From a virus (taxonomy: Duplodnaviria > Heunggongvirae > Uroviricota > Caudoviricetes): a stretch of 31,466 nt of DNA. The stretch is from the IMG/VR virus record IMGVR_UViG_2645727604_000022, one strand, 5' to 3'. The notes below the pieces were generated by a model, which was not told the origin of the DNA, made no database searches, and saw only the letters and a list, made by a program, of their open reading frames with translations. The position numbers and the translations under genes were made by a program. Positions 14,326 to 31,466 of this stretch are shown piece after piece (position 1 is the first letter of the stretch; each line of letters starts with the position of its first letter).

Positions 14326-14404
14326 ACATGAGTGCCCATTGGAAAGTTGCTTGGGCCAATACCTTTATACACCAGCAGGTAGTGACGATAGGTGAGGATC
14401 AGAT

Positions 14405-15522: not shown

Positions 15523-17640
15523 CTAGTCATTATCTGGATCATTAGATAGCCAAGTAATGATGCCCAGTCTGGCGATGGTCCGTTTTTCCTGTTCAGGAAG
15601 AGAGTTAAAAAAACTCTTCCATTGAGGGGAGCGCCTGATACGTGAATCAACAATGTGCCCAGGCGCTTTTCCGTGTAGATTTTTTACTGCGCTCTGGAAG
15701 GCTGGCGAGGCAATTAATTTATCCGCAGCATCAGCCGCCCCTGCTCCACCAGCTAATCGAGCTTTACTCGCCAATCTTGCTCCAATATCAGCCCCAGCAA
15801 TGGCTCCAAGCGATCCAAAATGAGCGCCTACCATCGTGCCTATTTTTTGAATGTGTTTTGCTGCTAGTTCGTATGGAGCTGTTACCCGATTAAATCTGTT
15901 TACAAACTCATTCAGCTTACCAGTAGATATTTCATGCGCTTTAGCATTTTTTATTGCTCTGGCAACTTTGTATACATCATATAGTCCGCTCATTGTTTCT
16001 TTTGGCAAATGTTCAGCCAAAGTCTTTAGCTGTCCACTGTGTTGCAAGTTTTGCCACCAATCTGCAAAGCCAGATGGATTAAAGTCGGCCCCACGCTTCC
16101 CAGAGGAAAGCATATCTCTTAATGCTGTTCCTACTAGCTCCCTTCGCAATGTTCTTGATGGAGTATTTTGCATAATCTCACGAAACCCTCTCGCATCACC
16201 TTTTGCCATAGATTGAAGAGAATTCGTTACTTTATACGCTATATCCCCATTAAGTGTTTTCCCGCGAAGATTTACCATTTGCCTTTCTAAGTTTTTTCTC
16301 ATAGCTACAAGGCGTTGTGCGACTTCGAAATCTCGCAAGTATCCAGTATTGGATAAGACAGATTTTTGGTCTTCAGCTAAAGCTCCATATAGTCTTGATA
16401 GCGCTTCTTTATCAGCATCTTTGTATGGCCCCTGCTTTTTATTTAGGGCATCACCAACTAAACGCCTTTGCCTGTTTAAATTTGCATACGTTAGGATTCT
16501 ATCTGGGCCGGGGTTTATTGCTGTAAAAACTCGCTTTTCTATTGGGTCAAGATTATCCCACCCTCCTAAATCATCAGCGATTTTTTCCAGCATAGTGCTT
16601 GTGTTATTTGCTTCGACTTTTGTTCTTGGTGATAGAGCGGAATCAACACGTTTATATAACTGATCACTACGGTTTTTTAGTGCTTCCATTCTACTATTTA
16701 TCTGATAAATATATTTTTCGCTCATAGCTAACGCATCTGGCGCACCAGCAACATCATCGATTATCTTGCCAGCACTAGAGGCTAATTCGCTTATTGCTTT
16801 ATCTTCTTGAGCTTTTAACGCTGATCCTGTCCGTGACTTTAGGGCTTGCTCTACAGCTTGGTATTGCTCATTTCCTGATAAATGAGAAGGAAGAACTGAA
16901 TCAACATGAAGCCTATTTGCAGCCTCAACAATTTCTTTCTGAGGTTTTAGATCTAGCCCTTCAAGCGAAGAGGCAAGATTTGGGTTGCCTTGTGCAGATA
17001 ACTTACGAATTTTCTCTTCGGCAGGAGTAATCCCCTCAATATCTGGAATCGAAGAAACATTCTTCTTGGTTAATTTCCCAGCTATTTTATTAATTGCAGG
17101 GCCAGCAAGTTCGGCTACAGGGCCAGCCACAGCGCCAATAGCAGCGCCGGAAGCAACATCGCTATTTGTTCCATTGGCTACAATAGCCCCTTCTCCAGCA
17201 CCAAGCCCTGCGGCGGCAGCCAGTCTTGCCGCCCCTTTGGGAACCTGAGAAATAATCCCACCACCACTAACAAATGGCGCTGCTTGTCCAACGAACTCAC
17301 CAACATCTTGTGCGGTTGATGGTTTTGCCGCTAACTTCTGCTGTAGAGACTGAATTGCGGCTTGCTCTTCTGGTGTCATATCCTGAAACAGGCCAACACC
17401 TTTACCAACATCCATCAATCCACTGAGAACGCCATACATAAAACGGTCGAAACCGTTAGCATTATTAACAACATTTTCCTGTCTGGAATTTTCCTCTGGT
17501 GAAACCAAAGGTGATTGCTGCTGTTCTGGTTGGGCATCAAGCACAAAACCATCAGGAAGCTGTGAACTATCAGGAAACTGTGAGTTATCAGGTTGTTCAT
17601 CGAGCACAAAACCTTCCGGTAAGATTACATTTGCTGCCAT
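15523..17640 (-). CDS. Hypothetical large Gly/Ala-rich coiled-coil protein (705 aa), last gene of the LexA-box operon
   Basis: N-terminal repeats PEGFVLDEQP / PDGFVLDAQP, long Gly/Ala zipper segments, no P-loop or nuclease motif found. Confidence 0.75.
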   Translation of the reverse strand: MAANVILPEGFVLDEQPDNSQFPDSSQLPDGFVLDAQPEQQQSPLVSPEENSRQENVVNNANGFDRFMYGVLSGLMDVGKGVGLFQDMTPEEQAAIQSLQQKLAAKPSTAQDVGEFVGQAAPFVSGGGIISQVPKGAARLAAAAGLGAGEGAIVANGTNSDVASGAAIGAVAGPVAELAGPAINKIAGKLTKKNVSSIPDIEGITPAEEKIRKLSAQGNPNLASSLEGLDLKPQKEIVEAANRLHVDSVLPSHLSGNEQYQAVEQALKSRTGSALKAQEDKAISELASSAGKIIDDVAGAPDALAMSEKYIYQINSRMEALKNRSDQLYKRVDSALSPRTKVEANNTSTMLEKIADDLGGWDNLDPIEKRVFTAINPGPDRILTYANLNRQRRLVGDALNKKQGPYKDADKEALSRLYGALAEDQKSVLSNTGYLRDFEVAQRLVAMRKNLERQMVNLRGKTLNGDIAYKVTNSLQSMAKGDARGFREIMQNTPSRTLRRELVGTALRDMLSSGKRGADFNPSGFADWWQNLQHSGQLKTLAEHLPKETMSGLYDVYKVARAIKNAKAHEISTGKLNEFVNRFNRVTAPYELAAKHIQKIGTMVGAHFGSLGAIAGADIGARLASKARLAGGAGAADAADKLIASPAFQSAVKNLHGKAPGHIVDSRIRRSPQWKSFFNSLPEQEKRTIARLGIITWLSNDPDND

Positions 17641-18923
17641 TTTCCGTTCCTGTAAATGATTTTCTGACCAGTTTTAGGGTTGGTTGCCGTTGCGCCTTCT
17701 GATATTCCTCCGGTTGCCGCTTTTGCCTGTCCAGTGCCAGCCTGTGATGTAGGCTGCCCGGAAACATCGTCAAATAGCTTCGCTTTCCTTCTTTCAAGGC
17801 TTTTTCTTAGCCCCTGAGGAATAGTTTCTCCATATGTATCGAGATACTCGTCAACCTGCTGGTTAAACTGCTGCCCCATAGCATTGGCGTTGATTTTTGC
17901 GGCGTTAACAATGTTATCCTTTGCCTCCTGCGACAGGCCGTTTCCAGCATTAAGCTGGTCTATGTATCCTTTGATTTGTCCCCATATGCCATCAGACCGC
18001 ATTACCTGAACCTGTTCGCCTTCACGAACGACTGACTGCGGGTCAAGAGATTTCATGTAGTTGAAGATAATCCCAAGTTGGGCAGCGCCAGTATTTACCT
18101 TGCTAAGGGCTTGCAGAGAGTTTGCCGCCGCTCTGACAGAGTTATAATTTTTGCCAAAATTGGTAATGTCAGAATTTAATCCCTTAATTAAGTCTGCTGA
18201 CGGCTTACCTTTTTGCCCCAGCTCCATTAGCTTCAATCCCATCTCATCTGAGTGAATTTGTGCTCGCTGAGCCCTGTCTAGTTGAGCGTTCTGGATATTT
18301 GCCCATCCTCTCGCGTTCTCCATGTCAGCCTGACGCATACTTTCATCCAGTCGCCCTTGCTCAAGTCGACGACCTTCCATTTGATCTTTGATATCGAAAT
18401 ACTTCTCATGACCGAGAGAAAACAGTGCCATACTACCAGCAAGCCGCTGGAACCCCTGTGGATCATTAACATGCATTTCGGCAACAGACTCAGGAGAAAT
18501 TCCCAAGCGACGCATTTCATCTTCGTTATCTGCTATGAATTTTCCAAATGCCCCAGTTCCGAGCGAAGATGCGATTTGAGCACTAGTCGCAAGATGACCA
18601 ATAGAATTTCTCTGGTCGTCATCAATAAAGCCCATCCCTTTCTGAACGCTTTCAAATTCTTCTGGATACTCAGAAATAAGACTGCGCATTTTGTTTCTGT
18701 CTCCAGACTCAAAAGCCCCGGCATATGCTTTCTGAAACTCTGCTTTACGCTGTTGTTGACGTGCCTGCTGATTAATCTCAGCAACGCCTCTTAGCCCCTG
18801 TAGCGCCATTAAACCTACGTTTGGCTGCTGCTGATACTGCACAGGCTGAGGAACGGAAGAACGAGGAGCATTATCATTTTGCGGTGCCATGCTAGGCAGC
18901 CCGCCAAGTTGCCATGTCGCCAT
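17625..18923 (-). CDS. Hypothetical coiled-coil protein (432 aa)
   Basis: Q-rich N-terminus; overlaps neighbouring genes by a few nt (translational coupling). Confidence 0.75.
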   Translation of the reverse strand: MATWQLGGLPSMAPQNDNAPRSSVPQPVQYQQQPNVGLMALQGLRGVAEINQQARQQQRKAEFQKAYAGAFESGDRNKMRSLISEYPEEFESVQKGMGFIDDDQRNSIGHLATSAQIASSLGTGAFGKFIADNEDEMRRLGISPESVAEMHVNDPQGFQRLAGSMALFSLGHEKYFDIKDQMEGRRLEQGRLDESMRQADMENARGWANIQNAQLDRAQRAQIHSDEMGLKLMELGQKGKPSADLIKGLNSDITNFGKNYNSVRAAANSLQALSKVNTGAAQLGIIFNYMKSLDPQSVVREGEQVQVMRSDGIWGQIKGYIDQLNAGNGLSQEAKDNIVNAAKINANAMGQQFNQQVDEYLDTYGETIPQGLRKSLERRKAKLFDDVSGQPTSQAGTGQAKAATGGISEGATATNPKTGQKIIYRNGKWQQM

Positions 18924-19600
18924 TAGAATCCAAGCCCCCCAACAAGACCAATAAGCCCACCACCAATAGCGCCGGCCGCAGTTCCTATTCCAGGAACAAC
19001 GGAACCAAGTTGCGCACCCGCTAAAGCGCCTGATGCTGCCCCACCAATACCACGCGCAAGACTGGATGGCTGCTGCGCCTGACCTGCACGAATAGCGCCA
19101 AGCCCCTGCAAGAGTTGTCCGGTATTATTGGCGTAGTTTTGCCCTGCCGTTGCCTGCCCTGATGCCGCATTCATCCCGACATTTAGCAGGTTTCCATAAT
19201 TTTGCATTTGCCCACTAAGCCAATTGTTATAAAGCATGGGCGCAATGGAAGATAACTGGTTACTGGTAGCTGTTGAGCCAAGCCCCCCGGTAGCTTCTGC
19301 TGAGACAAGGTTCTGATAACGGGCCTGATCTGCCTGTGTTTTATATAAACCAGAACCAAAGAAATCATTCGCGGCTTTATTCTGCCCTTCCAGAGTCATC
19401 AGTCCTTGTAGTTGTTGTAAAGCAGGCAATCCGACTTCTGCATACGGCTTGAGATTATTCATCACCGTATTCCACTGCTCGCGCTGCAAATCAATTGCCT
19501 GCTGCTGGGCCTTCGCCTGAGCTTTAGAGGCACCACCATCACCGCCTTTTTCGTATACGGCACGATTGAGATGTTTATGAGCTATATGGGTAATTAACAT
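18923..19600 (-). CDS. Hypothetical protein with extremely Gly-rich hydrophobic C-terminus (225 aa)
   Basis: C-terminus GIGGAASGALAGAQLGSVVPGIGTAAGAIGGGLIGLVGGLGF. Confidence 0.7.
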   Translation of the reverse strand: MLITHIAHKHLNRAVYEKGGDGGASKAQAKAQQQAIDLQREQWNTVMNNLKPYAEVGLPALQQLQGLMTLEGQNKAANDFFGSGLYKTQADQARYQNLVSAEATGGLGSTATSNQLSSIAPMLYNNWLSGQMQNYGNLLNVGMNAASGQATAGQNYANNTGQLLQGLGAIRAGQAQQPSSLARGIGGAASGALAGAQLGSVVPGIGTAAGAIGGGLIGLVGGLGF

Positions 19601-20055
19601 TCGCTGAATTCCTTATATTGTTGCCGAGTTAACTGATAAAGCGTTACGCCGACGGGTTTACCACATCTGATATAAGCATCATCAAGGTGACCAACACGGG
19701 TAGCGCCAAGCAAACGGATAATTGCCCGTCCGTATTTCGTGGTGTCAGGAACCATAGTGATGCTGTTAAGGAATGGTGAGTTTTCGAGAAGCCATTTGCA
19801 GAATAATCGATGTCCTTGCAGTGCATATTCACCACGGAATCCGGGGTCGTACACCGCATGGCATTCAACAACGCTATGCCAGAAGTTACGCACTTCATGA
19901 ACGCCAGCCAGCACTAATCCTTCGTAGATGCCGAGATATACCGCATCAGGCTTGATGTAGTACGTGTGCCCCGGCTCAACAATATTTTCGGTATTGCCTG
20001 GCTCGTTAAGAAAGGCCTGTAATCGCACAGGGTTATCAATAAATTTTAGTTCCAT
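19594..20055 (-). CDS. Hypothetical protein (153 aa)
   Basis: ORF coupled to downstream genes; no diagnostic motif (GNAT motif looked for and not found). Confidence 0.7.
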   Translation of the reverse strand: MELKFIDNPVRLQAFLNEPGNTENIVEPGHTYYIKPDAVYLGIYEGLVLAGVHEVRNFWHSVVECHAVYDPGFRGEYALQGHRLFCKWLLENSPFLNSITMVPDTTKYGRAIIRLLGATRVGHLDDAYIRCGKPVGVTLYQLTRQQYKEFSEC

Positions 20056-20071
20056 GCGATGCCATCCATTT

Positions 20072-20233
20072 TCACATACAGCCTGCCAGCGCCTTATCTA
20101 TTAACCCTCGTGCAATTTCATGCAGAGTTGGCGCTACTCCAATTCCTGATTTTTTACGCTGCTCTTCCTGAATTTTCTTTATCGCTTCCATTTGCTTCTC
20201 ACTTATCAATACCGGCTTTACTGAAATAGCCAT
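20072..20233 (-). CDS. Small RHH-like putative regulator (53 aa), first gene of the operon; not in the ORF track
   Basis: Hand translation MAISVKPVLISEKQMEAIKKIQEEQRKKSGIGVAPTLHEIARGLIDKALAGCM; GGGGG 5 nt before ATG. Confidence 0.45.
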   Translation of the reverse strand: MAISVKPVLISEKQMEAIKKIQEEQRKKSGIGVAPTLHEIARGLIDKALAGCM

Positions 20234-20248
20234 AACGCCCCCTTAGAA

Positions 20249-20264
20249 CTGTATAAAACAACAG
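20249..20264. promoter_or_regulatory. LexA-type SOS box CTGTATAAAACAACAG, immediately downstream of a perfect TATAAT (20267-20272, minus strand)
   Basis: Matches CTGT-N8-ACAG with an AT-rich spacer; sits 16-31 bp upstream of the RHH start codon; only such box found in the window. Confidence 0.45.
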
Positions 20265-20678
20265 TTATTATAGTTTCACAAATCGCAATATTCATCATCG
20301 TAATTGCAAAATATGAAACAAATAGCACAAAAAAATGCCACCGCTCAGTAGCTGGTGGCATCGTTCTGTGTGTCAGGTTTTGACAGGTTTTTTATGGACT
20401 CTAAAAACTATATTTATGGTGTCGCATTACTCTTCACGGCAGGCGCTTTTCAGTTCTGCCCTTGCTTCTGGCTCCATTGGTAATTTGATTCGCGATCAGC
20501 TATGCGGATGGTTTGCTGAACAGGCATAACAACTTCTCAGAGGCTGTTTTCTGAACTACGAAAATTTCGTAGTGCTCACTTTCAAAAACGTCACGCCCTT
20601 GTACACAGGATTTTACGAAAGTCTCGTAAAACACTCTCTGATGCCAGCCAGGTGTTGTGCGCATCAATTCAGTCACAT

Positions 20679-20799
20679 TGTGTTGGTTCAAAATACCGTG
20701 TTGTTGGTTCAGTGTTGGTTCAATAAAAAGAATAAAATCCTTATAAAACAATACTCTTTACAAATTGAACCAACTGAACCAACTGAACCAACACCTTTT
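20679..20799. repeat. Iteron cluster IR-R: inverted partner of 13641-13770, 19 bp downstream of the primase-helicase stop
   Basis: Three spaced GTTGGTTCA then TGAACCAACTGAACCAACTGAACCAAC. Confidence 0.65.
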
Positions 20800-20817
20800 C
20801 TACGCACATGAAGAAGC

Positions 20818-23577
20818 TCATTCTTCAGATGAGTTATAATCTCCTGGCTGGTAATTGAGTACATAAACGTTTATTTGTCGTCCCTGAATACGTGGTGATT
20901 TTCTTTGGTATCCACGACCGCTGTTTGGTGGGGTTAGCATCCCGGCTTTTTTCAACACTTCAGCAAACTGTTTTGCGTTGAAACCACATGCGATCTCCTT
21001 TTCAAATGTGGCCGGGAATGTGTAGAAAATCATTGGGCTTTCGTCATGTTCTCCACGCTGACGGTATCCGGCTAAATCTTTGATGGGCAAATCTGCCGGG
21101 CTGTATGGAAATGGTGCAAAACGGCTAAGCCCATAGGCATTAAGAAATGCCTCCGTTTGTTCAATAATCTGCTGATGCTCTTTGTTACCTGTGCCGAACT
21201 CGCGCAACCATGCGTTATAGCTGTGCTGTATCGCATCACGGCATGTCTGAGCATCCCAGCCTGTTACAACCTCGCCTAACAACAATGCGGCCTCCAGAAT
21301 GGCAAATCGCGCGGCTACACGGTGAACCTGCTCACCATAATCGGATGGGATCAGGCTTCTCCATCTGCTTTCGCAGTCACGAACGGTTTTAATAGCCTGT
21401 TGCTGGTGGTCTGCCAGCCATTTAATCCACTCACGCCCGGACGCGCCGTGGTGATGCTGGTAAGCGTCTTTCAGTGCGTCTGCGTGCTGTTTTCCGTTCT
21501 GGTAATCGTGAAAGCGTACTGCTTTACTCAACGGAATATTCAGCAGTCGCACCAGTTGCCCGGCTTTGGTTTTTCGCCCGGAAGTAGCGATAAATGTTTC
21601 TAAATCCATTTCTCCGGTGCTGATTGCCACTGTACGCCAGCGTTTTAGATCCCGGTTTCCACCATCTTTAGCGCCTTGCAGTTTCCCTACACCGTTAAAT
21701 AACGCATAGGCAGACTGTGAGACGCTGACAGGATCAGCGCCCTGACCAACTTCATCAAGCGGCATTAGTCCGTCATTGTGGGCGGCGGCCTCATTTGCCA
21801 GCCCCAGCGCGGTTCCGTACCACGTCAGCCGCAGTAAATCAGGGTTGCCGTATAAGCTGCTCGCCACGTTTGCCGTGGTGGTCTTACCTGCGCTCGACTG
21901 CTCATAGAAATGAATGCCGAACCCGTCAGCGCCCACCAGCCCAATCAATGGCGCTGCCAGTGCTGCGCCGATCCCGGTCATCATTGAATAGTTACCAAAG
22001 GACAGACGCGCCACGTTATCACGCCAGCTTTTCTCGCTCCCTGAGACGGTATATCCGGCTGCGGCTGAGCTTCTCCCGCTGAACAGCACAGGATTTTCAG
22101 GTGTTCCGATGATTTCCCCATCAGGCATGATGTACGCTCCGCATTGCCAGCCAGTGGCATGAGCAACACGCCACAATTCACGAGAGCCACTGCGTTGTAG
22201 CCAGTCTGCCAGTATTGCTCTGAGGCTGCTTTTGGTCGTGACATTTACCCCACCAGCTTTAAGTGTGCGCCATCCTTCACGTTCACCAATATCAGCCAGT
22301 GGAATGGCAGCGGTTGTCGGCGTTTCAGAACCAAACGACAGCCAGCGAAGAATGAGATACTGGTCTTTATCGTCTCTGCCAGTACCGATAACGCTTAACG
22401 GAGAACATAACCAGCTTTCGTTATTGATGATTTCTCCACTCTGGCTGTCAGCTCTCGGAGATACCCAATAAATACCATCCTCGCGGCTTTCTATTCTTGG
22501 TTTCAGTGGATCGGTATCCATAACCTTAAAATCGCTTCCCTCAATGGTCTGTGGCTCCTGTTTCACGCCATTACCCTGTGGTTGGTACATTGACTTATTG
22601 AACGCTTCTGTGGCGCATTTAATGCCGTGTTTTTGGTGGTAATCATTCCAGTCTGCTTTGTGATCTGTCGGGGGTAATGCCACCCATCCAGAAACAGATA
22701 AAGCTGCTTTTTCTGCTGCTATTCTCCCCGTGTTTTGTCTTCCTTCGCTGTGGTCGTTATCCGCAGCAATGATGATTTGTGCTGAAGGAAATTTATCCCG
22801 CAGTACCTGGGCGACATATAACAGGTTCCCGGCATCAATCGCCGCCACTGTCAGCGCCTCTGGACGCATTAAATGGGCAGATAATGCCGTTGCCAGCCCT
22901 TCTGCGATTAAGATGCTCTGTGTTGTTTCTGGTGCGTTTATGGCGTGATATGCCCCTCGCTTTGCTGAACCTGTCAGGAGTCTTTTTTCACCATGTGAGG
23001 TAATAGTCTGTGCTGCTGTTACTGCGCCGGATTTATCCACCAGCGCCAGCAACAGAGATCCATCGGGCAACACGGGGAATGTAAAATCACCTACCCCTTT
23101 CGCAACCAGATAATCAGATTTGCCGTTTACAGCCTTTCTGCGCATGTCATCAAACTGACGGGAAAACGTATCCCGTCTTTGTTGTTCGTCCTTCTCTGCC
23201 CTTTTCAGGCGCTCCTGTTCGCGTCGCTGGCGCTCGGTTTCCAGTTGTTCCCGTTTCTGGCTGGTGGCTTCTGGTGTTTCCGTTGTCCGGTAATCAATAC
23301 CCAGAACATCAGCGGCAAGAAGCGCCGCCTCTGTTGTGTCGCAGTTATTTACGCGTTTAATTAAATCCAGCCCATCACCAGCGCCGCACTGATTACAGAT
23401 GAAGCTACCGCGCCCGTTGTCATCGAACCGGAATCGATCTTTGCCCCCACATGCAGGGCAGGGAGCATGACGGCGCGGAGAGTCAGGGACATTTATGTTC
23501 AGGCAGCCCAGCACATGAGGCCAGTTGTTTTCAGACGCACTGATAACCTGACGGATAAGATCAATGTTTCGCATCAC
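20818..23577 (-). CDS. P4 alpha-like primase-helicase (919 aa)
   Basis: N-terminal zinc-ribbon CPACGG...CNQCG, P-loop YEQSSAGKTTT; size and context typical of satellite/island replication proteins. Confidence 0.85.
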   Translation of the reverse strand: MMRNIDLIRQVISASENNWPHVLGCLNINVPDSPRRHAPCPACGGKDRFRFDDNGRGSFICNQCGAGDGLDLIKRVNNCDTTEAALLAADVLGIDYRTTETPEATSQKREQLETERQRREQERLKRAEKDEQQRRDTFSRQFDDMRRKAVNGKSDYLVAKGVGDFTFPVLPDGSLLLALVDKSGAVTAAQTITSHGEKRLLTGSAKRGAYHAINAPETTQSILIAEGLATALSAHLMRPEALTVAAIDAGNLLYVAQVLRDKFPSAQIIIAADNDHSEGRQNTGRIAAEKAALSVSGWVALPPTDHKADWNDYHQKHGIKCATEAFNKSMYQPQGNGVKQEPQTIEGSDFKVMDTDPLKPRIESREDGIYWVSPRADSQSGEIINNESWLCSPLSVIGTGRDDKDQYLILRWLSFGSETPTTAAIPLADIGEREGWRTLKAGGVNVTTKSSLRAILADWLQRSGSRELWRVAHATGWQCGAYIMPDGEIIGTPENPVLFSGRSSAAAGYTVSGSEKSWRDNVARLSFGNYSMMTGIGAALAAPLIGLVGADGFGIHFYEQSSAGKTTTANVASSLYGNPDLLRLTWYGTALGLANEAAAHNDGLMPLDEVGQGADPVSVSQSAYALFNGVGKLQGAKDGGNRDLKRWRTVAISTGEMDLETFIATSGRKTKAGQLVRLLNIPLSKAVRFHDYQNGKQHADALKDAYQHHHGASGREWIKWLADHQQQAIKTVRDCESRWRSLIPSDYGEQVHRVAARFAILEAALLLGEVVTGWDAQTCRDAIQHSYNAWLREFGTGNKEHQQIIEQTEAFLNAYGLSRFAPFPYSPADLPIKDLAGYRQRGEHDESPMIFYTFPATFEKEIACGFNAKQFAEVLKKAGMLTPPNSGRGYQRKSPRIQGRQINVYVLNYQPGDYNSSEE

Positions 23578-23932
23578 CGTACCCCACGTGGTCTATAGCG
23601 TTTGCGATATGGCTAACTAGCATCTGCCACTTGGTTATTCCGTAATCAGTCAGCATGCCATCATTGTTTAGCCACATATCAAATTCAGCGGTTGTCGCAA
23701 GTTTCCACTTATCGCCGTGGACAGTCCTCATTGCTGGGTACATGAATGCGCAAATCAGATCACAAACATCTGACGGCTTCAGAGATGTAGTAATGGTGCG
23801 TCCCTCTGGCGTCTGAATTGCCATTTTCTCTTCACCAGTAGAATGAAGGTTATGAATCCACACAGCACCAGCAATCTTTGCCACCTGCTCTCCGATTGCG
23901 GAGCTAAGCGCCATTTCTACATTTTCACGCAT
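23561..23932 (-). CDS. Hypothetical protein (123 aa)
   Basis: ORF overlapping the primase start (coupled). Confidence 0.55.
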   Translation of the reverse strand: MRENVEMALSSAIGEQVAKIAGAVWIHNLHSTGEEKMAIQTPEGRTITTSLKPSDVCDLICAFMYPAMRTVHGDKWKLATTAEFDMWLNNDGMLTDYGITKWQMLVSHIANAIDHVGYGDAKH

Positions 23933-24266
23933 GAGAACCTCCCGCTACAGTTGCGCCCATGTCATTAACCATGCTTTGCCATATCTCACGCCCGACGTCA
24001 GTCAATCTGTCCTTAGTGACGCAACGATCAAGAAGCTCGATCCCCACGGTTTCCCACTGCGGGTAGAACACTTTCATGGCTGCCAGTGCGTAACTATCGA
24101 TCAGGCTGCGAACGCCTTTTACTCCATTGACGATTTCCACACGGACGGCCTCTCCGTCCGCATCAATCATGAAATAGTCCCCGCCGCTGGTGGAGGTAAT
24201 GTGGTTATACAGTGCTGACGCATACTTATTTGCCAGCGCATTCAGTCGGAAATTTTTAGTAATCAT
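23925..24266 (-). CDS. Hypothetical protein (113 aa)
   Basis: ORF in the coupled gene chain. Confidence 0.55.
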   Translation of the reverse strand: MITKNFRLNALANKYASALYNHITSTSGGDYFMIDADGEAVRVEIVNGVKGVRSLIDSYALAAMKVFYPQWETVGIELLDRCVTKDRLTDVGREIWQSMVNDMGATVAGGSHA

Positions 24267-24276
24267 GGCTCCATCC

Positions 24277-24879
24277 TCAGTGCGTCACTGGTTCCGCTGG
24301 CATGCCGTTTTCATTCAGTTCAGCTATAAAGCTGTTGTGAAGTTCAGCAAGCGTTTCACGACCAAATGGAGTCAGTGCTCCTTGTTCCACATCCATCATG
24401 GCTCTGTAGAAAATGATGGCGCGTTCTGTGCCAGACTCGATGCCAAAACGTTCTATCATCGCGCCCTCAATGTTGTTTGCCATAGCGAGGCGCTCTGCTA
24501 CTGGATACAGCGGCATGGCGACGATGCCGTTGGAATAAACAGCCACTTCGGAAGGATTGCCAGTATCATCAATGATGCTGACAGTGCCGTTTTCCTTTCT
24601 CATTTCATTGATGAATGCTGTTGCTATCAGCCAGCGCCACATAATCACGTGATGCTGTGATGTGTAATCGAAATATCCCTGGTTGCCGCCACTGGCAATA
24701 GCGAGATGTATAAACATGCCTTCATCTGGTTTATCGTCATAATCCCCGGCATCCAGACGATTTACGGCATCAATATATGAGACGGTCTCAACGCGTTCTG
24801 TCATGCCATCGTTGCTGCGGTACATGATGTTTACGCCGTCAGGCGTTGCTTCTGCATGGAAAGTTAAGAAATTATTCAT
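24277..24879 (-). CDS. Hypothetical protein (about 200 aa; start assigned to internal ATG 24879 rather than ORF-track 24984)
   Basis: GAGG 6 nt before ATG 24879; 8-nt overlap with the upstream gene. Confidence 0.5.
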   Translation of the reverse strand: MNNFLTFHAEATPDGVNIMYRSNDGMTERVETVSYIDAVNRLDAGDYDDKPDEGMFIHLAIASGGNQGYFDYTSQHHVIMWRWLIATAFINEMRKENGTVSIIDDTGNPSEVAVYSNGIVAMPLYPVAERLAMANNIEGAMIERFGIESGTERAIIFYRAMMDVEQGALTPFGRETLAELHNSFIAELNENGMPAEPVTH

Positions 24880-25093
24880 GTTTCGCCTCGCCTGAATGAT
24901 TCTGTAACTCATATTTGCCCAACAATTCGTCTGCTTCCTGAATAGCTTCTGGTACGCCATTGAGCAGTGACATAACCGCGCCAATCATTAACTTGTCTCT
25001 GTTGCTGGGGCTGGCCCCTTCAAGCCAGAACCCTAAAACAGTCTGAACCTGTTCGATGCGACATTGCGCTTCAATGAGCTGGATGTTGGTCAT
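24872..25093 (-). CDS. Hypothetical small protein (73 aa)
   Basis: ORF in the coupled gene chain. Confidence 0.45.
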   Translation of the reverse strand: MTNIQLIEAQCRIEQVQTVLGFWLEGASPSNRDKLMIGAVMSLLNGVPEAIQEADELLGKYELQNHSGEAKHE

Positions 25094-25353
25094 TTCGCAC
25101 TCTCCACATCGATTAAACCGATATCTATCAGGGAGGTAACTTTTTGTAGCCAGCTATTGATTACTGTCGCCTGTTCCCCTCCCACCGAGGGAACAATCTC
25201 ATTCATCACATGAACCAGACCTGTGCGCGCTCTGGTAAGCCGTTCAGTCGCGCAATCTGCGGGAGTGAATGTGTCTGGATATGGCTCTTCGCGCCCCAGC
25301 AATGATTCAATTTCCAGCTCACACGGATGACGATAAATTAAGTTGATATTCAT
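25090..25353 (-). CDS. Hypothetical small protein (87 aa)
   Basis: ORF in the coupled gene chain. Confidence 0.45.
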   Translation of the reverse strand: MNINLIYRHPCELEIESLLGREEPYPDTFTPADCATERLTRARTGLVHVMNEIVPSVGGEQATVINSWLQKVTSLIDIGLIDVESAK

Positions 25354-25544
25354 TTTTCACCCCCAAGAATTACCAGCTCGGCACGGGCATCGTTAACCAA
25401 AGATGAGCACGCTTTAATCGCATCCACGACATCAGCAGCGTCCATTTCTTCAGCCGAAAGACTGACAGCAACCAGGACAGCCGCTGCTTGCTCGATTAAT
25501 TGAAGTGCGGACGTAAGGCGAGGGGTATTAATTGAGTTATTCAT
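25350..25544 (-). CDS. Hypothetical small protein (64 aa from ATG 25544)
   Basis: GGGGG 6 nt before ATG; 8-nt overlap with the upstream gene. Confidence 0.45.
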   Translation of the reverse strand: MNNSINTPRLTSALQLIEQAAAVLVAVSLSAEEMDAADVVDAIKACSSLVNDARAELVILGGEK

Positions 25545-25755
25545 TGGTTGCCCCCGTTTTGCATGGCATTTGTCCACCTTCCAGCAGGAAATGAACGTCA
25601 CGAACGGCGAGATCCAATATCGCGAGTAACGCCTTCAGTCTTTCGTCTCGTGAGGGAGAGTTGCTCACCAGAATGTCGTTAATCACTTCTGTCAGTGTGA
25701 TGATCTGGCTTGTGCGTTCGAGGGGATCCATATGCACATCGTAGGTTTTAATCAT
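25537..25755 (-). CDS. Hypothetical small protein (72 aa)
   Basis: SD GGAGG 6 nt before ATG 25755; lies in the C-terminal frame of the 342-aa track ORF. Confidence 0.45.
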   Translation of the reverse strand: MIKTYDVHMDPLERTSQIITLTEVINDILVSNSPSRDERLKALLAILDLAVRDVHFLLEGGQMPCKTGATNE

Positions 25756-25942
25756 GTGCCACCTCCATGCGGATACGACCAGCAAAAAAGCAGATGTGAT
25801 CGCGCACCAGAGAACGGCGAGCATCGCGTTCAGACTCGGCAGCAATATGATGAATTTTGGCGGTAATTGTCGGGCAATCGCGGCGAACTGCGGCGATAAT
25901 CCAGATAAATTGCGGTTTTTGGGTAGGGGTAGTAGCCAGCAT
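25748..25942 (-). CDS. Hypothetical small protein (64 aa), first gene of the coupled chain leading to the primase
   Basis: Strong SD AAGGAGG 7 nt before ATG. Confidence 0.5.
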   Translation of the reverse strand: MLATTPTQKPQFIWIIAAVRRDCPTITAKIHHIAAESERDARRSLVRDHICFFAGRIRMEVAHD

Positions 25943-26099
25943 GTGGCAGCCTCCTTGATTGATGTTTTATAGCCACCGCCGGAGGTCCTAAGCTCGCTGG
26001 CGGTGGACTGTACAGGGTTAGGACTACTGGCAATCAAGGAAACCAGCCTGACCGAAGTCAGCCCCATACAGCCCACCATTGATAAGGTGTGCGTGTGCG

Positions 26100-26230
26100 C
26101 CGATACAAAAAAAGACGCTGGCGCGTCATGTATCGCCTCGATTGCCTGCGGGGTCCTAATCCCGGCACCCGTTTTATGAGGTGCCTTATAACCATAAACC
26201 GTGTTGCCGCATAACGGCAAGCTCTTTTTT
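26100..26230 (+). ncRNA. Candidate structured small RNA ending in an intrinsic terminator
   Basis: Hairpins GACGC-TGGC-GCGTC (26114-26127), GGCACC-N10-GGTGCC (26164-26185), terminator TTGCCG-CATAA-CGGCAA followed by CTCTTTTTT (26204-26230). Confidence 0.3.
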
Positions 26231-26565
26231 ATGGACTCCGAAAACTCACTATTGGAAGAACCAGAGGCACAGTACATCGCGCTCATTTCGTTAACGTCGC
26301 GCGTGCGGACGAAGATTTTTGTGGAGTCACTACGCGAGCAGAACAGGTCATCTACGACCAGAAATTCTCTGGCGCAGCCGCTGACCTTCTCAACGCTAAC
26401 ACCATCGACCGTAATTTCTGACATAGTTAAGGCATCCGCTCCTACCACCATAAAATGATAAGCTTTGCTTGTATCTGCTGTATTAATGCCAGACTTTGCT
26501 GTCATATTGCTGGATTTTTGCGACATAGCAGTCAGTGAAAATATCTTCTTCTGGACGGTTAGCAT
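26170..26565 (-). CDS. Protein-like N-terminal part of the ORF starting at 26565; 3' end unresolved (frame stays open to 25537)
   Basis: SD GGAGG 7 nt before ATG 26565, coupled to the upstream gene; the first ~130 codons look protein-like, the following codons read like translated structured RNA; the 26170 end is arbitrary. Confidence 0.3.
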
Positions 26566-26741
26566 TTGTTAACCTCCGCGAACTCCTTCATGAAGCGCGC
26601 CAGCGGTTGTACGCATGGCGATTGATACCCGTCGCGATAAAACGTCACTCGGTTGTGAGACACGCTTTCGACAGTAACGAGTGCTCCGTGGGCATCTTTG
26701 TAGCGTTTTTGAGGTTGTGGTGTTCCTGTCGGCTTAAACAT
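26559..26741 (-). CDS. Hypothetical small protein (60 aa from ATG 26741)
   Basis: SD GGAGG 6 nt before ATG; start overlaps the AntA-like stop. Confidence 0.4.
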   Translation of the reverse strand: MFKPTGTPQPQKRYKDAHGALVTVESVSHNRVTFYRDGYQSPCVQPLARFMKEFAEVNKC

Positions 26742-27567
26742 GGACCGCCTCCAGACGCTTGGCGAGCCAGCGTTGCGACAGGCGGGTGAGTTCTCCTTTG
26801 CGCTGCTCATATTCCATGCCCATATCAATTAACGTGATATTGGTGCTTTCGAGATATGAGAGGTGCTCAAGCTGTTCTGCGTTCATATGGTCGCGAGGTT
26901 CGCCAGAATAGCCATTTATCCGCGCCCACTGCTTAGCAGTTAGCCCTCCAAGAACGATACGAGAAATCATATTGCTCTCGTTTGTGTAGTGGTGTTGCTG
27001 CGTCGTTTTCCCCTGCTCGGCACGGGCCATATTCAGCGCATCGCACATTGGCTTAAAGTTGTTTGCGGCACTGATACGGGCTTTTAGCTGGCGACGATAG
27101 CGGGCGGCGATTTCAGGCACGCTACGCTGTAATTCTTCCTCGCACTGGATGAAATAACGACGGATAGCGCGACCCTGATCATTGCGTTCGATCATTGCCA
27201 GCTCTTTCGCCATTCCGACACTTAACAGATAGTCTTTGCCGGGTCTGCCAGACTGCTTAATCTTGCTGTAAGCCGTGCCATTCGGGCTTTTCCCCAAATT
27301 TGGGGAAATTGTTTTATGGACTGAGTAATCGTGCCCAATGGTGAAGTCATATTCAGAGATGCGATCAGTGATCCATGTAGAGAAGTCTTTTCCCACGCCC
27401 AACGCTTTGTGTAACGCTTTTGCGCTAACAATATTGGTTTCACGCCCACCGATGTGACCAGGAATAACCGGGACAATTGCGGCAAATTCATTACCGTTAA
27501 TTGTGCCCAGAGAGGCGTTCAGATGAGGGGCGGCCTCAGAAATTAATCTGCTTTTTTCGATGTTCAT
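26734..27567 (-). CDS. AntA/AntB-type antirepressor-like protein (277 aa)
   Basis: N-terminal segment SAKALHKALGVGKDFSTWITDRISEYDFTIGHDY matches the AntA domain pattern as recalled. Confidence 0.6.
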   Translation of the reverse strand: MNIEKSRLISEAAPHLNASLGTINGNEFAAIVPVIPGHIGGRETNIVSAKALHKALGVGKDFSTWITDRISEYDFTIGHDYSVHKTISPNLGKSPNGTAYSKIKQSGRPGKDYLLSVGMAKELAMIERNDQGRAIRRYFIQCEEELQRSVPEIAARYRRQLKARISAANNFKPMCDALNMARAEQGKTTQQHHYTNESNMISRIVLGGLTAKQWARINGYSGEPRDHMNAEQLEHLSYLESTNITLIDMGMEYEQRKGELTRLSQRWLAKRLEAVHV

Positions 27568-27579
27568 TTTCAGTCTCCG

Positions 27580-28011
27580 TTAGGCGGCGTTAAACGCGTC
27601 CGGGTAGAGTTTCAGAATGTCGGCAATTTCCTGCTGAGAAAGTCCGTTGTGATCATTTATGTTCGCAAGATGGTTAATATGAGTGATCACTTTCAGAACA
27701 TCACCACGGCAGGAGAAACGGTAGCGAAGGTGTGTTCCGATACCATCAGGATTCTTTTCGTCGATACGCTCCAGAGTGATTCCAAGCTGGCGTTCTAACT
27801 CTGTTGCATAGTTACGACCAGAAGACAGACGGCAGTAGCGAAGAATGTCATTTTCTGTCCATCCCTCTATACCAGTACGCAGCATATAGACTCTGGCACG
27901 ATGCTTTTTCGGTGTGCGCTTTGGTGCTTGAAGGGATTTTGTAAGGGGCGTAACATCAGATACACGAATATCTGAATTAGCCGCCTGTAATGGGCGGTTT
28001 TTCTTTTCCAT
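27580..28011 (-). CDS. Hypothetical putative DNA-binding protein (143 aa)
   Basis: ORF coupled to alpA (ATGA overlap); basic N-terminus, HTH-like segment RLSSGRNYATELERQLGITL. Confidence 0.5.
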   Translation of the reverse strand: MEKKNRPLQAANSDIRVSDVTPLTKSLQAPKRTPKKHRARVYMLRTGIEGWTENDILRYCRLSSGRNYATELERQLGITLERIDEKNPDGIGTHLRYRFSCRGDVLKVITHINHLANINDHNGLSQQEIADILKLYPDAFNAA

Positions 28012-28214
28012 CAGGCCACCTCGTCTCTAGATTCTAATATACACTTCTCAATCCATTCATCTATTTCAGACTCAACAAAAGCAATTGCCCGACTTCCAAT
28101 TTTTACCTGTTTAGGGAACCTCCCCTGACTAATAAGACGATAAATCCATGCTTTGCTATAACCAGTTCGCCTTTGAACTTCAGAGAGACGAATTAATGAA
28201 TTGTAATTAGCCAT
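28011..28214 (-). CDS. alpA: AlpA-family excisionase / transcriptional regulator (67 aa)
   Basis: LIRLSEVQRRTGYSKAWIYRLISQGRFPKQVKIGSRAIAFVESEIDEWI matches the AlpA pattern. Confidence 0.8.
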   Translation of the reverse strand: MANYNSLIRLSEVQRRTGYSKAWIYRLISQGRFPKQVKIGSRAIAFVESEIDEWIEKCILESRDEVA

Positions 28215-28436
28215 TTATTAATATCCTGTACTAATGACGCAATAACCCCCTCCTGCAACGAATGGCGAGAGTTTTATTTGCGTCAAATGTCGAATACGCC
28301 AAAGACCACAATATGAAAAACATATTGCGGTCTTTTATAAAAGATAGTCAGATTGTTTTGGTTTGTTCGCTCCACAAGGGTAGAGCTACCCTGCATTTCG
28401 GCAGGATCACGCTATTAGGCGTGACATCCAGTAGTT

Positions 28437-28499
28437 TTAAAGAACAATTGCGCTTTGTCAGCGCCAAAGCCTGTTAAAGAACATTCCGCTTTGTCAGCG
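28437..28499. repeat. Two direct 26-27-bp repeats TTAAAGAACA(A/T)T(T/C)(G/C)CGCTTTGTCAGCG between int and alpA
   Basis: Copies at 28437-28463 and 28474-28499. Confidence 0.3.
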
Positions 28500-28642
28500 A
28501 CGTAGAAGGCTCAATACACCTTCGTTTATAAAAGAGCGATTGCCCTTCTCCAGGGCTAACTGTTAAATAGCAATCCTCTGTGAGTTTTTATCAATCTACT
28601 CCCCTATACTTTAGTAAACCTCTGTATACTTGTCCAGTTGTT

Positions 28643-29857
28643 TCATGCGTGTTTTTCAAACACCATATGCACCACATTTCCGCCATGCTCGAGAGAATCC
28701 ATATAGTCGGCATACCATTGAAGCATCTCCCGCCTTCCATCCAGATATTGCGCATGGTTGTATGTGCCACGAATTGAGTTCTTATCAACGTGAGCGAGCT
28801 GCGTTTCTATCCACGCGGTGTTATAGCCCTGCTCATGCAAAATCGTACTCATAGTGTGCCGGAACCCATGACCAGTTACACGTCCAGCGTAGCCAATGCG
28901 CTTAAACACTTGGTTTATGCTGGCCTCACTCATTGTTTTCCTTGGATCATTGCGCCCGGGAAACATAAGAGGGTAATTGCCTGTTATTTCTCTAATCTTC
29001 CCAATAAGCGAAAGAGCCTGATCAGACAATGGCACAATATGAGGCCGCCGCATTTTCATACGTGAAGCGGGTATCTCCCAGATAGCCTTGTTGAAATCAA
29101 TTTCATCCCATAATGCGCCACGTAGTTCGCCAGTCCGCAAGCCGGTGATAATCAGTAGACGAGCCGCCATAACAACCAATGCGCTTCCTGAGTAACTGGA
29201 CAATGCCTTGAAAAAATCAGGTAATTCTTTAGCTGTAAGGAAAGGGTAATGATTAGATTCATGGCCTTGCATCGCGCTAGTAAGGTCTGGTGCAGGGTTA
29301 TACTCTGCGCGACCAGTGACTATTGCATAGCGGAAAACTTCCCCGCACCGCTGCCTCACTTTTTTGGCTTTTTCTGTAGCACCGCGCCCCTCGATGCGCC
29401 GCAGCACATTCAGAAGTTCAAGTGGTTTGATTTCGGCGATTGGTTTTTTGCCAATGTAAGGGAACACATCTTTGTTGAAGGCTTCGAGGATGTCTGAAGC
29501 ATAACCAGCAGACCATTTTTTTAATTTGCTGCTGTGCCACTCAAGGGCAATATCTTTGAAGGTGTTGTTTAACTGCGTTTCCCGGGCAATCTTTTCCTCT
29601 CGTTTCGCTTCCATCGGATCGATACCACCAGCGATACCTCTTTTCGCATCTTCACGTTTTGCCCGAGCATCGGCTAGAGTAACCTCAGGATACACACCTA
29701 GTGCCAATAGCTTCTCTTTACCAGCTACACGATATTTAAGTCGCCAGTATTTACCTCCATTAGGTTTTACCAAGAGATACAAACCGCCACCATCGGCCAG
29801 CTTGTAAGCCTTCTCTTTTGGCTTGGCTGTGTCTATTTGACGGGCATTGAGTTTCAC
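28643..29857 (-). CDS. int: P4-type tyrosine integrase (404 aa)
   Basis: N-terminus MKLNARQIDTAKPKEKAYKLADGGGLYLLVKPNGGKYWRLKYR typical of tRNA-targeting P4-like integrases; catalytic HGFRHT and Tyr region near the C-terminus; adjacent to tRNA. Confidence 0.9.
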   Translation of the reverse strand: MKLNARQIDTAKPKEKAYKLADGGGLYLLVKPNGGKYWRLKYRVAGKEKLLALGVYPEVTLADARAKREDAKRGIAGGIDPMEAKREEKIARETQLNNTFKDIALEWHSSKLKKWSAGYASDILEAFNKDVFPYIGKKPIAEIKPLELLNVLRRIEGRGATEKAKKVRQRCGEVFRYAIVTGRAEYNPAPDLTSAMQGHESNHYPFLTAKELPDFFKALSSYSGSALVVMAARLLIITGLRTGELRGALWDEIDFNKAIWEIPASRMKMRRPHIVPLSDQALSLIGKIREITGNYPLMFPGRNDPRKTMSEASINQVFKRIGYAGRVTGHGFRHTMSTILHEQGYNTAWIETQLAHVDKNSIRGTYNHAQYLDGRREMLQWYADYMDSLEHGGNVVHMVFEKHA

Positions 29858-29888
29858 TTGGGGGTACCTCCACTAAACCGAACAGCAA

Positions 29889-29913
29889 ATACCCCCATAA
29901 GTACCCCCATCTG
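29889..29913. repeat. Tandem TACCCCCA motif ATACCCCCATAAGTACCCCCATCTG, right-end copy (candidate arm-type site)
   Basis: Partner of 12264-12288. Confidence 0.4.
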
Positions 29914-29922
29914 ACCGTAGAT

Positions 29923-30005
29923 TTTGAGGGACTTTAGTAGACGTCAAAAGACGAACGGGGCTTTAATACGCGGATTATAAGGGGTTTTGAAAGACTTTAG
30001 TAGAC
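29923..30005. repeat. Two direct 21-bp repeats TTTTGA(GG/AA)GACTTTAGTAGAC between int and attR
   Basis: Copies at 29923-29942 and 29985-30005. Confidence 0.4.
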
Positions 30006-30020
30006 TTGGGGAGATGTTTG

Positions 30021-30039
30021 AATGGTGCCGATAATAGGA
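30021..30039. repeat. attR: 19-bp core overlapping the 3' end of tRNA-Thr
   Basis: Identical to 12184-12202. Confidence 0.6.
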
Positions 30040-30098
30040 GTCGAACCTACGACCTTCGCATTACGAATGCGCTGCTCTACCAACTGAGCTATATCGGC
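30023..30098 (-). tRNA. thrW: tRNA-Thr (anticodon CGU)
   Basis: Reverse complement reads GCCGATATAGCTCAGTTGGTAGAGCAGCGCATTCGTAATGCGAAGGTCGTAGGTTCGACTCCTATTATCGGCACCA; 7-bp acceptor stem, anticodon loop TTCGTAA. Confidence 0.9.
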
Positions 30099-30212
30099 CC
30101 TGAAAGGACATGTTCACGAACGTGAATCACGGTGGACAAGGTTAAAACTAACCGGGCGATGCGTCAATGGCCTTGTGAATCAAATGGCTACTTTTGCATC
30201 ACCCGGTTTTAT

Positions 30213-31466
30213 TTACGCACGAATGGTGTAATCACCAATGCCGATCCACTTGTAAGTGGTCAGTGCTTCCAGCCCCATCGGGCCACGCGCGTGAAGTTTT
30301 TGTGTGCTTACCGCCACTTCCGCTCCCAGACCAAACTGGCCGCCATCGGTAAAACGCGTAGAGGCGTTAACGTAAACAGCGGACGAATCCACTTCGTTAA
30401 CAAAACGCTGGGCGTTGCGCATATCGCGGGTCAGGATCGCATCGGAGTGTTGTGTGCCGTGTTCACGAATATGGGCGATGGCATCGTCAAGATCGCTGAC
30501 GATTTTAACGTTCAAATCTAATGACAGAAACTCATCGTCATACTCTTCGGCTTTAACAGCCACCACCTTCGCGGGGCCTGCCTGCAACTGCGCCAGCGCA
30601 GCTACATCTGCGTGTAATGTCACGCTGCTTTCCGCCATTTGCTTGCTTAATGCGGGCAGGAAGCTATCGGCGATGTTTTTATTCACCAGCAACGTTTCTA
30701 CCGTATTACACGTGCTCGGACGCTGAGTTTTCGCGTTGACAATTACTTTCAGGGCTTCAGCGATCTCTGCGCTTTCATCAACGTAAATATGGCATACGCC
30801 TATACCGCCTGTGATCACCGGAATTGTCGACTGCTCGCGGCACAGTTTATGCAAACCAGCCCCACCGCGCGGGATCAGCATGTCGATGTATTTATCCATA
30901 CGCAGCATTTCACTGACCAGCGCACGGTCAGGATTATCAATTGCCTGCACGGCACCCGCCGGTAAGCCGCAGGATTTCAGGGCGTCCTGAATCACCGCTA
31001 CCGTTGCAGCGTTAGTGCGACAGGTTTCTTTGCCGCCGCGCAGGATCACCGCGTTACCGGTTTTCAGGCACAGGGAAGCAACATCAACCGTCACGTTCGG
31101 GCGCGCTTCATAAATCACGCCAATCACTCCCAGCGGTACGCGACGACGCTCAAGACGCAGGCCGCTGTCCAGTACGCCGCCATCGATTACCTGCCCCACC
31201 GGATCGGCGAGATTGCACACCTGGCGCACATCGTCGGCAATGCCTGTCAGCCGTGCGGGCGTCAGTGCCAGACGGTCAAGCATCGCTTCGCTAAGGCCAT
31301 TAGCACGCGCGTCTGCAACATCCTGTGCGTTAGCGTTGAGGATGCTTTCGCTTTGTGCTTCCAGTTCATCGGCGATTTTTTCCAGCACACGATTTTTTTC
31401 GCGGCTGGAGAGTTGCGCTAATTTATACGAGGCTTGCTTCGCGGCAATGCCCATTTGTTCCAGCAT
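30213..31466 (-). CDS. proA: Gamma-glutamyl phosphate reductase (417 aa, complete; start at window edge)
   Basis: Full-length match to E. coli ProA as recalled ([25 protein letters not shown] ... GDYTIRA). Confidence 0.95.

Follow-up and report, generated by a model that had tools for sequence, protein, structure and literature searches.

The viral record IMGVR_UViG_2645727604_000022 (IMG/VR; Caudoviricetes) holds a stretch of 31,466 nt of DNA, referred to here at its full length as the window, in which eight small genes (labelled g1–g8, all on the minus strand, from 25942 to 23561) lead directly into the gene for a primase-helicase. Judged by its DNA identity, the element that carries them is a phage-inducible chromosomal island (PICI) of the EcCIMP1 type, already published in 2025, and not an unknown P4-like island. 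Taken as a whole, the explanation that we find best, and consider probable, is that the eight genes form the distal part of a single long early operon of this PICI, which runs from alpA to the primase and combines the control logic of the P4 left operon with that of the P1 immI region, and that g2–g5 and g8 encode interchangeable acidic accessory proteins. The operon is of an ordinary, already described kind and, since a textbook P4/P1 architecture is found here in a published satellite, it does not constitute a new kind of system. What is added is an explicit pairing between the C4 immunity RNA and the ribosome-binding site of g1 that co-varies over 14 specificities, an apparently maintained overlap between a long Eta-like open reading frame (ORF) and Kil, a modular gene set and a link between g6 and g7. 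The result is a concrete, testable account of how replication genes would be silenced in an abundant family of Escherichia coli satellites.

Identity of the element

Positions 18763–31466 of the window are 98% identical in DNA to EcCIMP1 of E. coli MP1 (98.1% over 7.3 kb and 98.1% over 5.4 kb), and the encoded proteins are 91–100% identical to those of the MP1 copy. EcCIMP1 was described as a PICI of E. coli MP1 inserted at tRNA-Thr next to proA (Pick, Stadel & Raivio, ISME J 2025; PMC11773190); the passages of that paper drawn on here report that Kapi1, a P22-like phage, induces and transfers it under the control of alpA, and that excision, replication and transfer, shown for EcCIMP1 itself, occur only upon induction of this helper. 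The window has the same tRNA-Thr/proA site and the same attachment (att) core. tRNA-Thr(CGT) lies beside proA at its right end (30023–30098), and the core TCCTATTATC, as given in PMC11773190, occurs on the minus strand within tRNA-Thr at the PICI end nearest int (30030–30039) and again at the far end (12193–12202), which gives two matches against 0.06 expected and an element of about 17.8 kb.

Reading along the minus strand from tRNA-Thr, the gene order is integrase, AlpA regulator, a 143-aa ORF, AntA/AntB, DUF4222, the chain of small genes, the primase and a set of ejection-protein genes. EcCIMP1 shares int, alpA, the 143-aa ORF, Ant, DUF4222, g1–g8, the primase and, of the ejection genes, at least those for DUF2824 and the gp7-like protein, but differs in its cargo (about 13.7–18.7 kb) and in its neighbouring island, which is another element. 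In PMC11773190, as far as its examined passages go, g2–g8 are listed as hypothetical proteins and isrK/C4 immunity is not discussed. The ejection genes had suggested a defective P22-like prophage; this was ruled out because the att repeats bound an element of 17.8 kb that is organised as a PICI and shares 98% identity with EcCIMP1. Of 5,426 complete E. coli genomes, 254 have the chain in full and 568 have parts of it.

The eight genes and their junctions

The first cistron past the immunity RNA is g1 (25748–25942), which encodes a basic (pI 9.5) Kil/Icd-like protein of 64 aa. It is followed by g2 (25537–25755; 72 aa), which lies in frame within the C-terminal end of the Eta-like ORF, by the rare and helical-looking g3 (25350–25544; 64 aa) and by g4 (25090–25353; 87 aa), all three without a family, and then by g5 (24872–25093; 73 aa; phrog_20558) and g6 (24277–24879; 200 aa; phrog_1515), the latter being the most widespread member of the chain. 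The partner of g6, g7 (23925–24266; 113 aa; phrog_37628), usually stands directly before the primase in related loci, and g8 (23561–23932; 123 aa), which belongs to a very small family, is inserted after g7 and ahead of the primase in the E. coli lineage. The proteins of g2–g8 are all acidic, with isoelectric points of 4.2–5.6. The chain ends with the primase-helicase itself (20818–23577, minus strand; 919 aa), which carries the Pfam domains Zn_Ribbon_Prim, Toprim_3 and DUF927, belongs to phrog_1139 and starts at a GTG at 23577 or an ATG at 23574.

The preliminary description of this DNA had proposed eight coupled genes ahead of the primase-helicase, several with strong Shine-Dalgarno sequences, and both points are borne out. 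From g1 to g6 the junctions are overlaps of 8, 8, 4, 4 and 8 nt, g6 and g7 are separated by a gap of 10 nt, g7 and g8 overlap by 8 nt, and g8 overlaps the primase by 17 nt from the GTG (14 nt if the ATG is used). Strong Shine-Dalgarno-like runs precede g1 (AAGGAGG), g2 (GGAGGTGG), g7 (GAGGATGGAG) and g8 (GGGAGG), while the other starts have weaker ones. The chain does feed into the primase, as proposed, but it does not begin at g1 and continues upstream to alpA (28214). The further claim that none of the eight carries a recognisable motif stands for g2–g8 in Pfam, NCBIfam, PADLOC and the PDB sequences and is wrong for the first gene, since g1 matches NCBIfam NF033153 (Icd-like; E 9.8e-20) and is 41% identical to P4 Kil over 58 aa. 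g1 also falls into phrog_1743, and it probably encodes a cell-division inhibitor or killer.

For comparison, 77 related loci were retrieved through the primase, of which 54, the window included, were analysed; 26 of these 54 carry isrK and C4. Genes of the related loci were called by dynamic programming, and Kil was placed by tblastn. Among the 26 loci, the junctions of called genes are nearly all −1, −4, −8 or −11 nt. The same eight ORFs are annotated in other E. coli genomes by the NCBI Prokaryotic Genome Annotation Pipeline (PGAP). It is very improbable that some of them are chance open frames in the leader region, even though g3 and g8 have very few relatives and PGAP leaves out g1 or g2 in some genomes, an omission that arises because the overlapping Eta-like ORF competes with them. 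None of the eight is disrupted in any of the five or six independent copies examined, the ratio of non-synonymous to synonymous polymorphism (pN/pS) is 0–0.7, and thus below 1, wherever synonymous changes exist, and for each at least one relative of 40–65% identity occurs in another genus, where it is likewise an ORF at the same position. By these measures of conservation, the eight ORFs are real genes, packed beyond chance and under purifying selection in their relatives.

Exceptional copies of the chain also occur. In E. coli O26 RM10386 (35098–36351 of that locus, L003), a 1-nt indel in g2 lengthens the 'ash family protein' ORF to 417 aa, through g3, and in strain M15 the chain is broken by an IS3 element. 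Some E. coli RefSeq records label a small chain gene 'nicotinic acetylcholine receptor subunit beta' or 'ubiquinol-cytochrome C reductase', names that look like inherited misannotations.

The immunity RNA and its target on the first cistron

Immediately upstream of g1, on the same strand, lie two RNAs, absent from the preliminary description, whose families are relatives of P4 seqA and of the P4 CI immunity RNA, respectively. An isrK-type RNA, the analogue of P4 seqA, is found at 26108–26184 (Rfam RF01394; 63 bits against a gathering score of 50), with a predicted intrinsic terminator at 26127–26114, and a C4, or P4-CI-type, antisense RNA is found at full length at 25996–26083 (RF01695; 80.2 bits against a gathering score of 45). 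The position of isrK and C4 just upstream of g1 would explain why the chain is coupled. A promoter-like sequence, TTGCCG-18-TATGGT (26191–26220, minus strand), can be read 7 nt before the 5' end of isrK; it is kept in most of the 26 related loci and may be the analogue of the P4 PLE promoter.

The loop of the second C4 hairpin, UCCUUGAUUG (12 nt), is a perfect complement of CAAUCAAGGA at 25961–25952, on the Shine-Dalgarno sequence of g1, so that positions 44–53 of C4 can form 10 Watson-Crick pairs with this region. The C4-loop target, CAAUCAAGGAGG (25950–25961, minus strand), spans the g1 Shine-Dalgarno sequence and is analogous to P4 seqC. isrK contains CAAUCGAGG, a 9-nt match to the C4 loop with one G-U pair.

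Co-variation between loop and target was scored in the 25 loci in which the C4 loop could be delimited. Their loops fall into 14 different sequences, and each of the 25 can form 8 or more Watson-Crick pairs with the leader of the first cistron in its own locus, in every case directly ahead of GGAGGCUGCC..AUG; with their own isrK, the loops form a median of 8 pairs. When loops are combined with foreign leaders, 8 pairs are reached in 0.3% of cases, and 7 pairs are never reached with a foreign isrK. Taken comparatively, this co-variation across loci speaks strongly for an action of C4 on the g1 ribosome-binding site, and the 14 matched loops would amount to a set of immunity specificities among the satellites of Enterobacterales.

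The isrK–C4 region (25921–26184) shares 87–91% identity with the Rha/Ant regulatory region found in numerous Stx2a-converting phages and relatives of these, and is recognisably related to those of phiP27, SfV, P1-like phages and APSE; Kapi1 is not among the phage records listed as sharing it. Loop sequences, if common to satellites and lambdoid phages, could give cross-immunity.

The upstream part of the operon

The long co-oriented chain begins with alpA (28011–28214, minus strand), which encodes an AlpA/Vis-type helix-turn-helix protein that is 100% identical to AlpA of EcCIMP1 and 39% identical to P4 ORF88/Vis. In EcCIMP1, alpA is described, in the passages of PMC11773190 used here, as a helper-induced master regulator that is needed for excision and transfer. 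Between alpA and the immunity RNA lies a Bro zone (26559–28011, minus strand; names from PGAP), composed of the 143-aa ORF (27580–28011), an AntA/AntB antirepressor gene (26734–27567) and a DUF4222 gene (26559–26741), which are coupled to each other and to the Eta-like ORF: going back from the latter to alpA, the successive junctions are overlaps of 7 and 8 nt, a gap of 12 nt and an overlap of 1 nt. The C-terminal part of AntA/AntB (residues 165–266) matches the PADLOC candidate defence model PDC-S22 (E 1e-10).

The Eta-like ORF (25537–26565, minus strand; 342 aa) contains a Phage_ASH domain (PF10554; E 1.5e-11; residues 124–207) and is annotated by PGAP as an 'ash family protein' of 342 aa. 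Its start overlaps the stop of DUF4222 (ATGCTAA), and it crosses isrK, C4 and g1, overlapping g1 (Kil) in the +1 frame, before it stops at the stop codon of g2, with which it is in frame. In 32 of 40 related loci, Kil is instead nested in frame in the long ORF, as in P4. In the eight loci of the window type (the window and 7 others), the long-ORF frame across Kil is free of stops in all eight, whereas one or more stops interrupt the same frame in 29 of the 32 loci in which Kil is in frame with the long ORF; the overlap between the Eta-like ORF and Kil therefore appears maintained. PGAP annotates either the long Eta-like ORF or the Icd-like gene together with g2, never both.

Proposed control of the operon

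By analogy with P4 and P1, a weak constitutive promoter before isrK would yield isrK and C4 in the resident state, and C4 would occlude the ribosome-binding site of g1. As g2–g8 and the primase would need ribosomes handed down from upstream, the untranslated RNA would be open to Rho-dependent termination and the primase would stay silent. Coupling would in this way let a single contact between an RNA and a ribosome-binding site silence the whole operon, the primase included. Upon induction by a helper such as Kapi1, AlpA would drive transcription from upstream, and ribosomes already engaged on the Eta-like ORF, itself coupled to DUF4222, would read across isrK, C4 and g1; the C4 block would be bypassed and ribosomes delivered in the frame of g2, allowing the chain and the primase to be expressed.

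Conservation of the coupled junctions in the 26 loci argues for such a scheme. Against it weigh the facts that a consensus promoter scan did not flag the TTGCCG-18-TATGGT sequence before isrK, that the promoter, RNA processing, Rho termination and read-through are all drawn by analogy only, and that Kil is out of frame with the Eta-like ORF, unlike in P4, so that the bypass step may differ in detail.

Comparison with P4, P1 and other PICIs

In P4, CI blocks the translation of kil, and the untranslated transcript ends at a Rho-dependent site (PMC10111431, citing Forti et al. 1999), whereas transcripts from the upstream late promoter escape because ribosomes translating eta run through this site (PMC10111431). 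The window has the same order of functions as the P4 left operon, with vis and eta/kil around a CI RNA followed by small coupled ORFs and the primase. It likewise has an AlpA/Vis homologue, an Ash/Eta-like ORF that encloses the immunity RNA, a Kil homologue first after the RNA, an RNA loop complementary to the leader of the first cistron, and two target sites (isrK/seqA and g1 leader/seqC). In P4, whose order is eta/kil, epsilon, orf151, cnr and alpha, the first two junctions are 8-nt overlaps and the later two are small gaps. The P4-type operon also has a Rho-dependent terminator, timm, in its first cistron, which translation suppresses.

The differences lie largely in gene content. When all P4 proteins were compared with the window by tblastn, only Int, the N-terminus of alpha and Kil matched, to which blastp adds Vis. 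The N-terminal 360 aa of the primase are 33% identical to P4 alpha, but its helicase half is DUF927 and not of the P4 type. Epsilon, orf151 and cnr have no homologues here, nor do g2–g8 in P4; Kil is out of frame with the Eta-like ORF, whereas P4 Kil is nested in frame at the end of eta; and sid, delta and psu are absent, with P22-type ejection-protein genes instead. The strict definition of a P4-like satellite asks for homologues of sid, delta, psu, epsilon and cnr, none of which was found by tblastn of the P4 proteins against the window. The earlier designation of the element as P4-like is thus apt for the regulatory layout and for the homologues of Int, Kil, Vis and the alpha N-terminus, and does not extend to the element, an EcCIMP1-type PICI that lacks sid, delta, psu, epsilon, orf151 and cnr.

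With the immI region of P1 and P7, the window shares a C4-family RNA (RF01695) and, after it, an Icd-like gene as first cistron, with complementarity between the RNA and the ribosome-binding site of this gene. Repressing the translation of icd in P1 also turns off the coupled gene downstream. That gene is ant in P1, whereas here seven unrelated small ORFs and the primase follow, and the antirepressor gene of the window (AntA, 26734–27567) lies upstream of the RNA; the complete immI module of c4, icd and a coupled ant was accordingly not found in the window.

Gram-negative PICIs have been divided into four zones, namely Integration, Bro, Replication and Late, and matches to C4 and isrK occur in them (Mageeney et al. 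2023, PMC10111431). The window conforms to this plan with int and alpA, a Bro zone (Ant, Ash) with C4 and isrK matches, the primase and late genes, but differs in having a 2.4-kb block of eight genes between the immunity RNA and the primase; PMC10111431 singles out no such block.

Accessory proteins of the chain

The slot between C4 and the primase contains from 2 to 9 genes in each locus; they belong to about 17 families, and their order is roughly colinear among the 26 loci. Among the approximately 54 Enterobacterales loci with a full-length primase, g6 is present in 33, g7 in 21, g5 in 19, g4 in 18, g2 in 4, and g3 and g8 in 2 each. The g8 family comprises 21 clusters among 5.8 billion sequences and is found in Enterobacterales, including Serratia. 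In E. coli, g1–g6 also occur ahead of a DUF5906 primase, and g7 also ahead of a P4-family primase.

Homology searches assign no function to g2–g8, which speaks against any particular role in our account. There was no match to a Pfam, NCBIfam or PADLOC family, and PHROGs gave only families of unknown function, for g5, g6 and g7. No PDB sequence was matched by the eight proteins when searched as one concatenated query, and blastp comparison of g2–g8 with P4 epsilon, orf151 and cnr gave nothing below E 0.2. PADLOC gave no significant match for g1–g8, the nearest being g3, with E about 0.008 to CARF models over 40–53 residues.

The slot might simply be an accessory region for host-takeover or anti-defence proteins, related neither to replication nor to the helper, which we hold to be rather unlikely. 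It would account for the shuffling of about 17 families among 26 loci, for the appearance of the same genes ahead of three primase types, for the small size and acidity of the proteins, for the sharing of g6 with early regions by int/xis of phiP27, Klebsiella and Stx phages, and for a confidently predicted g7 model that resembles no solved structure. However, gene order is fairly colinear rather than freely shuffled, and no anti-restriction, anti-CRISPR or defence family was matched in Pfam, NCBIfam, PADLOC or the PDB sequences, although this is a weak test, PADLOC covering defence and not anti-defence proteins.

The idea put forward in the preliminary description, that the small proteins interfere with or regulate the helper phage, taken here to include derepression in the manner of P4 epsilon, appears more unlikely still. 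The genes hold the position of P4 epsilon and orf151, their products are small and acidic, and the gene set varies between lineages, as would be expected of helper-specific factors; moreover, EcCIMP1 raises superinfection immunity to its helper Kapi1, as stated in the passages of PMC11773190 consulted. The same passages, however, report that Kapi1 titre and CI expression are unchanged by EcCIMP1 and that a Kapi1-like prophage is present in only 2 of 21 strains carrying EcCIMP1. There is also no similarity of the proteins to epsilon or to any antirepressor, and relatives of g6 occur in autonomous temperate phages that have no helper.

A reading that joins these ideas, which we offer tentatively and do not expect to hold in full, is that the region, in EcCIMP1-type and related PICIs, is a dedicated, fast-exchanging slot of small acidic effectors directed at host or helper (anti-defence, takeover or helper-tuning) and shared with the early operons of temperate phages, in which g6 and g7 would represent a new domain that regulates the primase or another partner, the 14 C4 loops would form a satellite immunity code, and a loop region like that of Stx phages would allow cross-talk with lambdoid phages. 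The probable reading given at the outset, with g2–g5 and g8 as interchangeable accessory proteins, leaves seven conserved uncharacterised proteins, the widespread g6/g7 pair among them, in an element for which a genetic system exists (MP1 and Kapi1). If any of g2–g8 is indeed a helper- or defence-directed effector, the list of satellite-encoded modulators grows.

The g6–g7 pair

Where g6 is present, g7 is often its neighbour (16 of 21 loci having g6). Profile-profile alignment of g6 and g7 is colinear (E 0.015) and includes an LTxxGRE motif, and in predicted models residues 74–191 of g6 and g7 show the same order of elements, a helix, a β-hairpin and three helices, which suggests that the two share a domain. 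The predicted g7 model is confident and has no similar solved structure, whereas the AlphaFold2 model of g6 has a predicted local distance difference test (pLDDT) score of 69 and no fold match. A search of 1.84 billion representative proteins with the g7 profile gave only 59 matches, one of which is a hybrid of a g6 N-terminus with a g7 C-terminus. The complete genome CP033893.1 encodes a natural g6–g7 fusion of 336 aa (L087, 6001–7011), followed directly by a DUF927 primase, and a protein joining ORF6N to a g7-like part (L089, 5001–5945) fills the same slot of another element, again directly before a DUF927 primase. The fusions, the hybrid and the shared profile therefore link g6 and g7 functionally, and the behaviour of the g7-like module is that of a domain shuffled within the Bro network. 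Our best guess is that g6 and g7 modulate the primase or serve as protein-binding adaptors of the Bro-network type.

P4 Cnr, which is encoded directly before alpha, tunes the origin binding of alpha and the copy number. That g6 and g7 (and g8 in E. coli) are replication accessory factors analogous to Cnr is possible, though doubtful. In its favour, in 16 of the 26 loci g7 is the last gene ahead of the primase, which it overlaps by 11 nt, and in one further locus (L085) it precedes a P4-family primase with an overlap of 8 nt. The g6–g7 fusion and the ORF6N protein occupy this same pre-primase slot, and the protein encoded on one short contig combines a primase Zn-ribbon with a g7-like domain. 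Three g6 relatives also carry faint precomputed matches to DUF5375, the Cnr family, but this similarity was not reproducible in a fresh Pfam scan of 40 members or by hhalign. One or both of g6 and g7 are missing from many loci that have the same primase, the genes accompany three primase types whose C-terminal domains are unrelated, and the g6 relatives found in phiP27 and CharmingMan are encoded in the early region beside int/xis and not next to replication genes. The direct assignment of g6 or g7 to Cnr/DUF5375 was rejected: g6 and 40 relatives gave no match to PF17345 at E up to 1, against which P4 Cnr itself scores 2.9e-63, and hhalign gave probabilities of 1.6% for g6 and 0.3% for g7.

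Some of this bears equally on the role that we prefer for the pair, as modulators of the primase or Bro-type adaptors. In the window g7 is parted from the primase by g8, and the presence of g6 and g7 beside three unrelated primase types, with g6 far from any primase in temperate phages, speaks against a specific primase partner.

Ejection genes, cargo and the neighbouring island

Just downstream of the primase, ejection-protein genes occupy 15523–20055 (minus strand) and encode DUF2824, P22_gp7, an Inj_translocase (gp20-like) and a 705-aa protein in the position of gp16. Such a P22-type set fits the podovirus helper Kapi1 and is unusual cargo for a PICI; in the passages of PMC11773190 examined, these genes appear only as 'DNA transfer' genes. 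The cargo at 12435–15503 is unlike that of EcCIMP1 and includes a pRiA4b ORF-3-like fragment (12435–12725) and a 198-aa ORF (14907–15503, plus strand) with a weak, sub-threshold match to Bax1-I, a membrane protein. In an E. coli O26 relative, this region contains Abi-family and PerC-family genes.

Beyond the far att repeat of the PICI, positions 1–12192 hold a second, separate island in tandem. Its genes include a tyrosine integrase (1–1335, plus strand), a Dit-like tail protein (1417–2130), a 608-aa ORF, a Phage_cap_E capsid protein (4294–5322), a helix-turn-helix protein and a serine resolvase (10441–10980), and it may be another satellite. E. coli MP1 carries a different island at this position.

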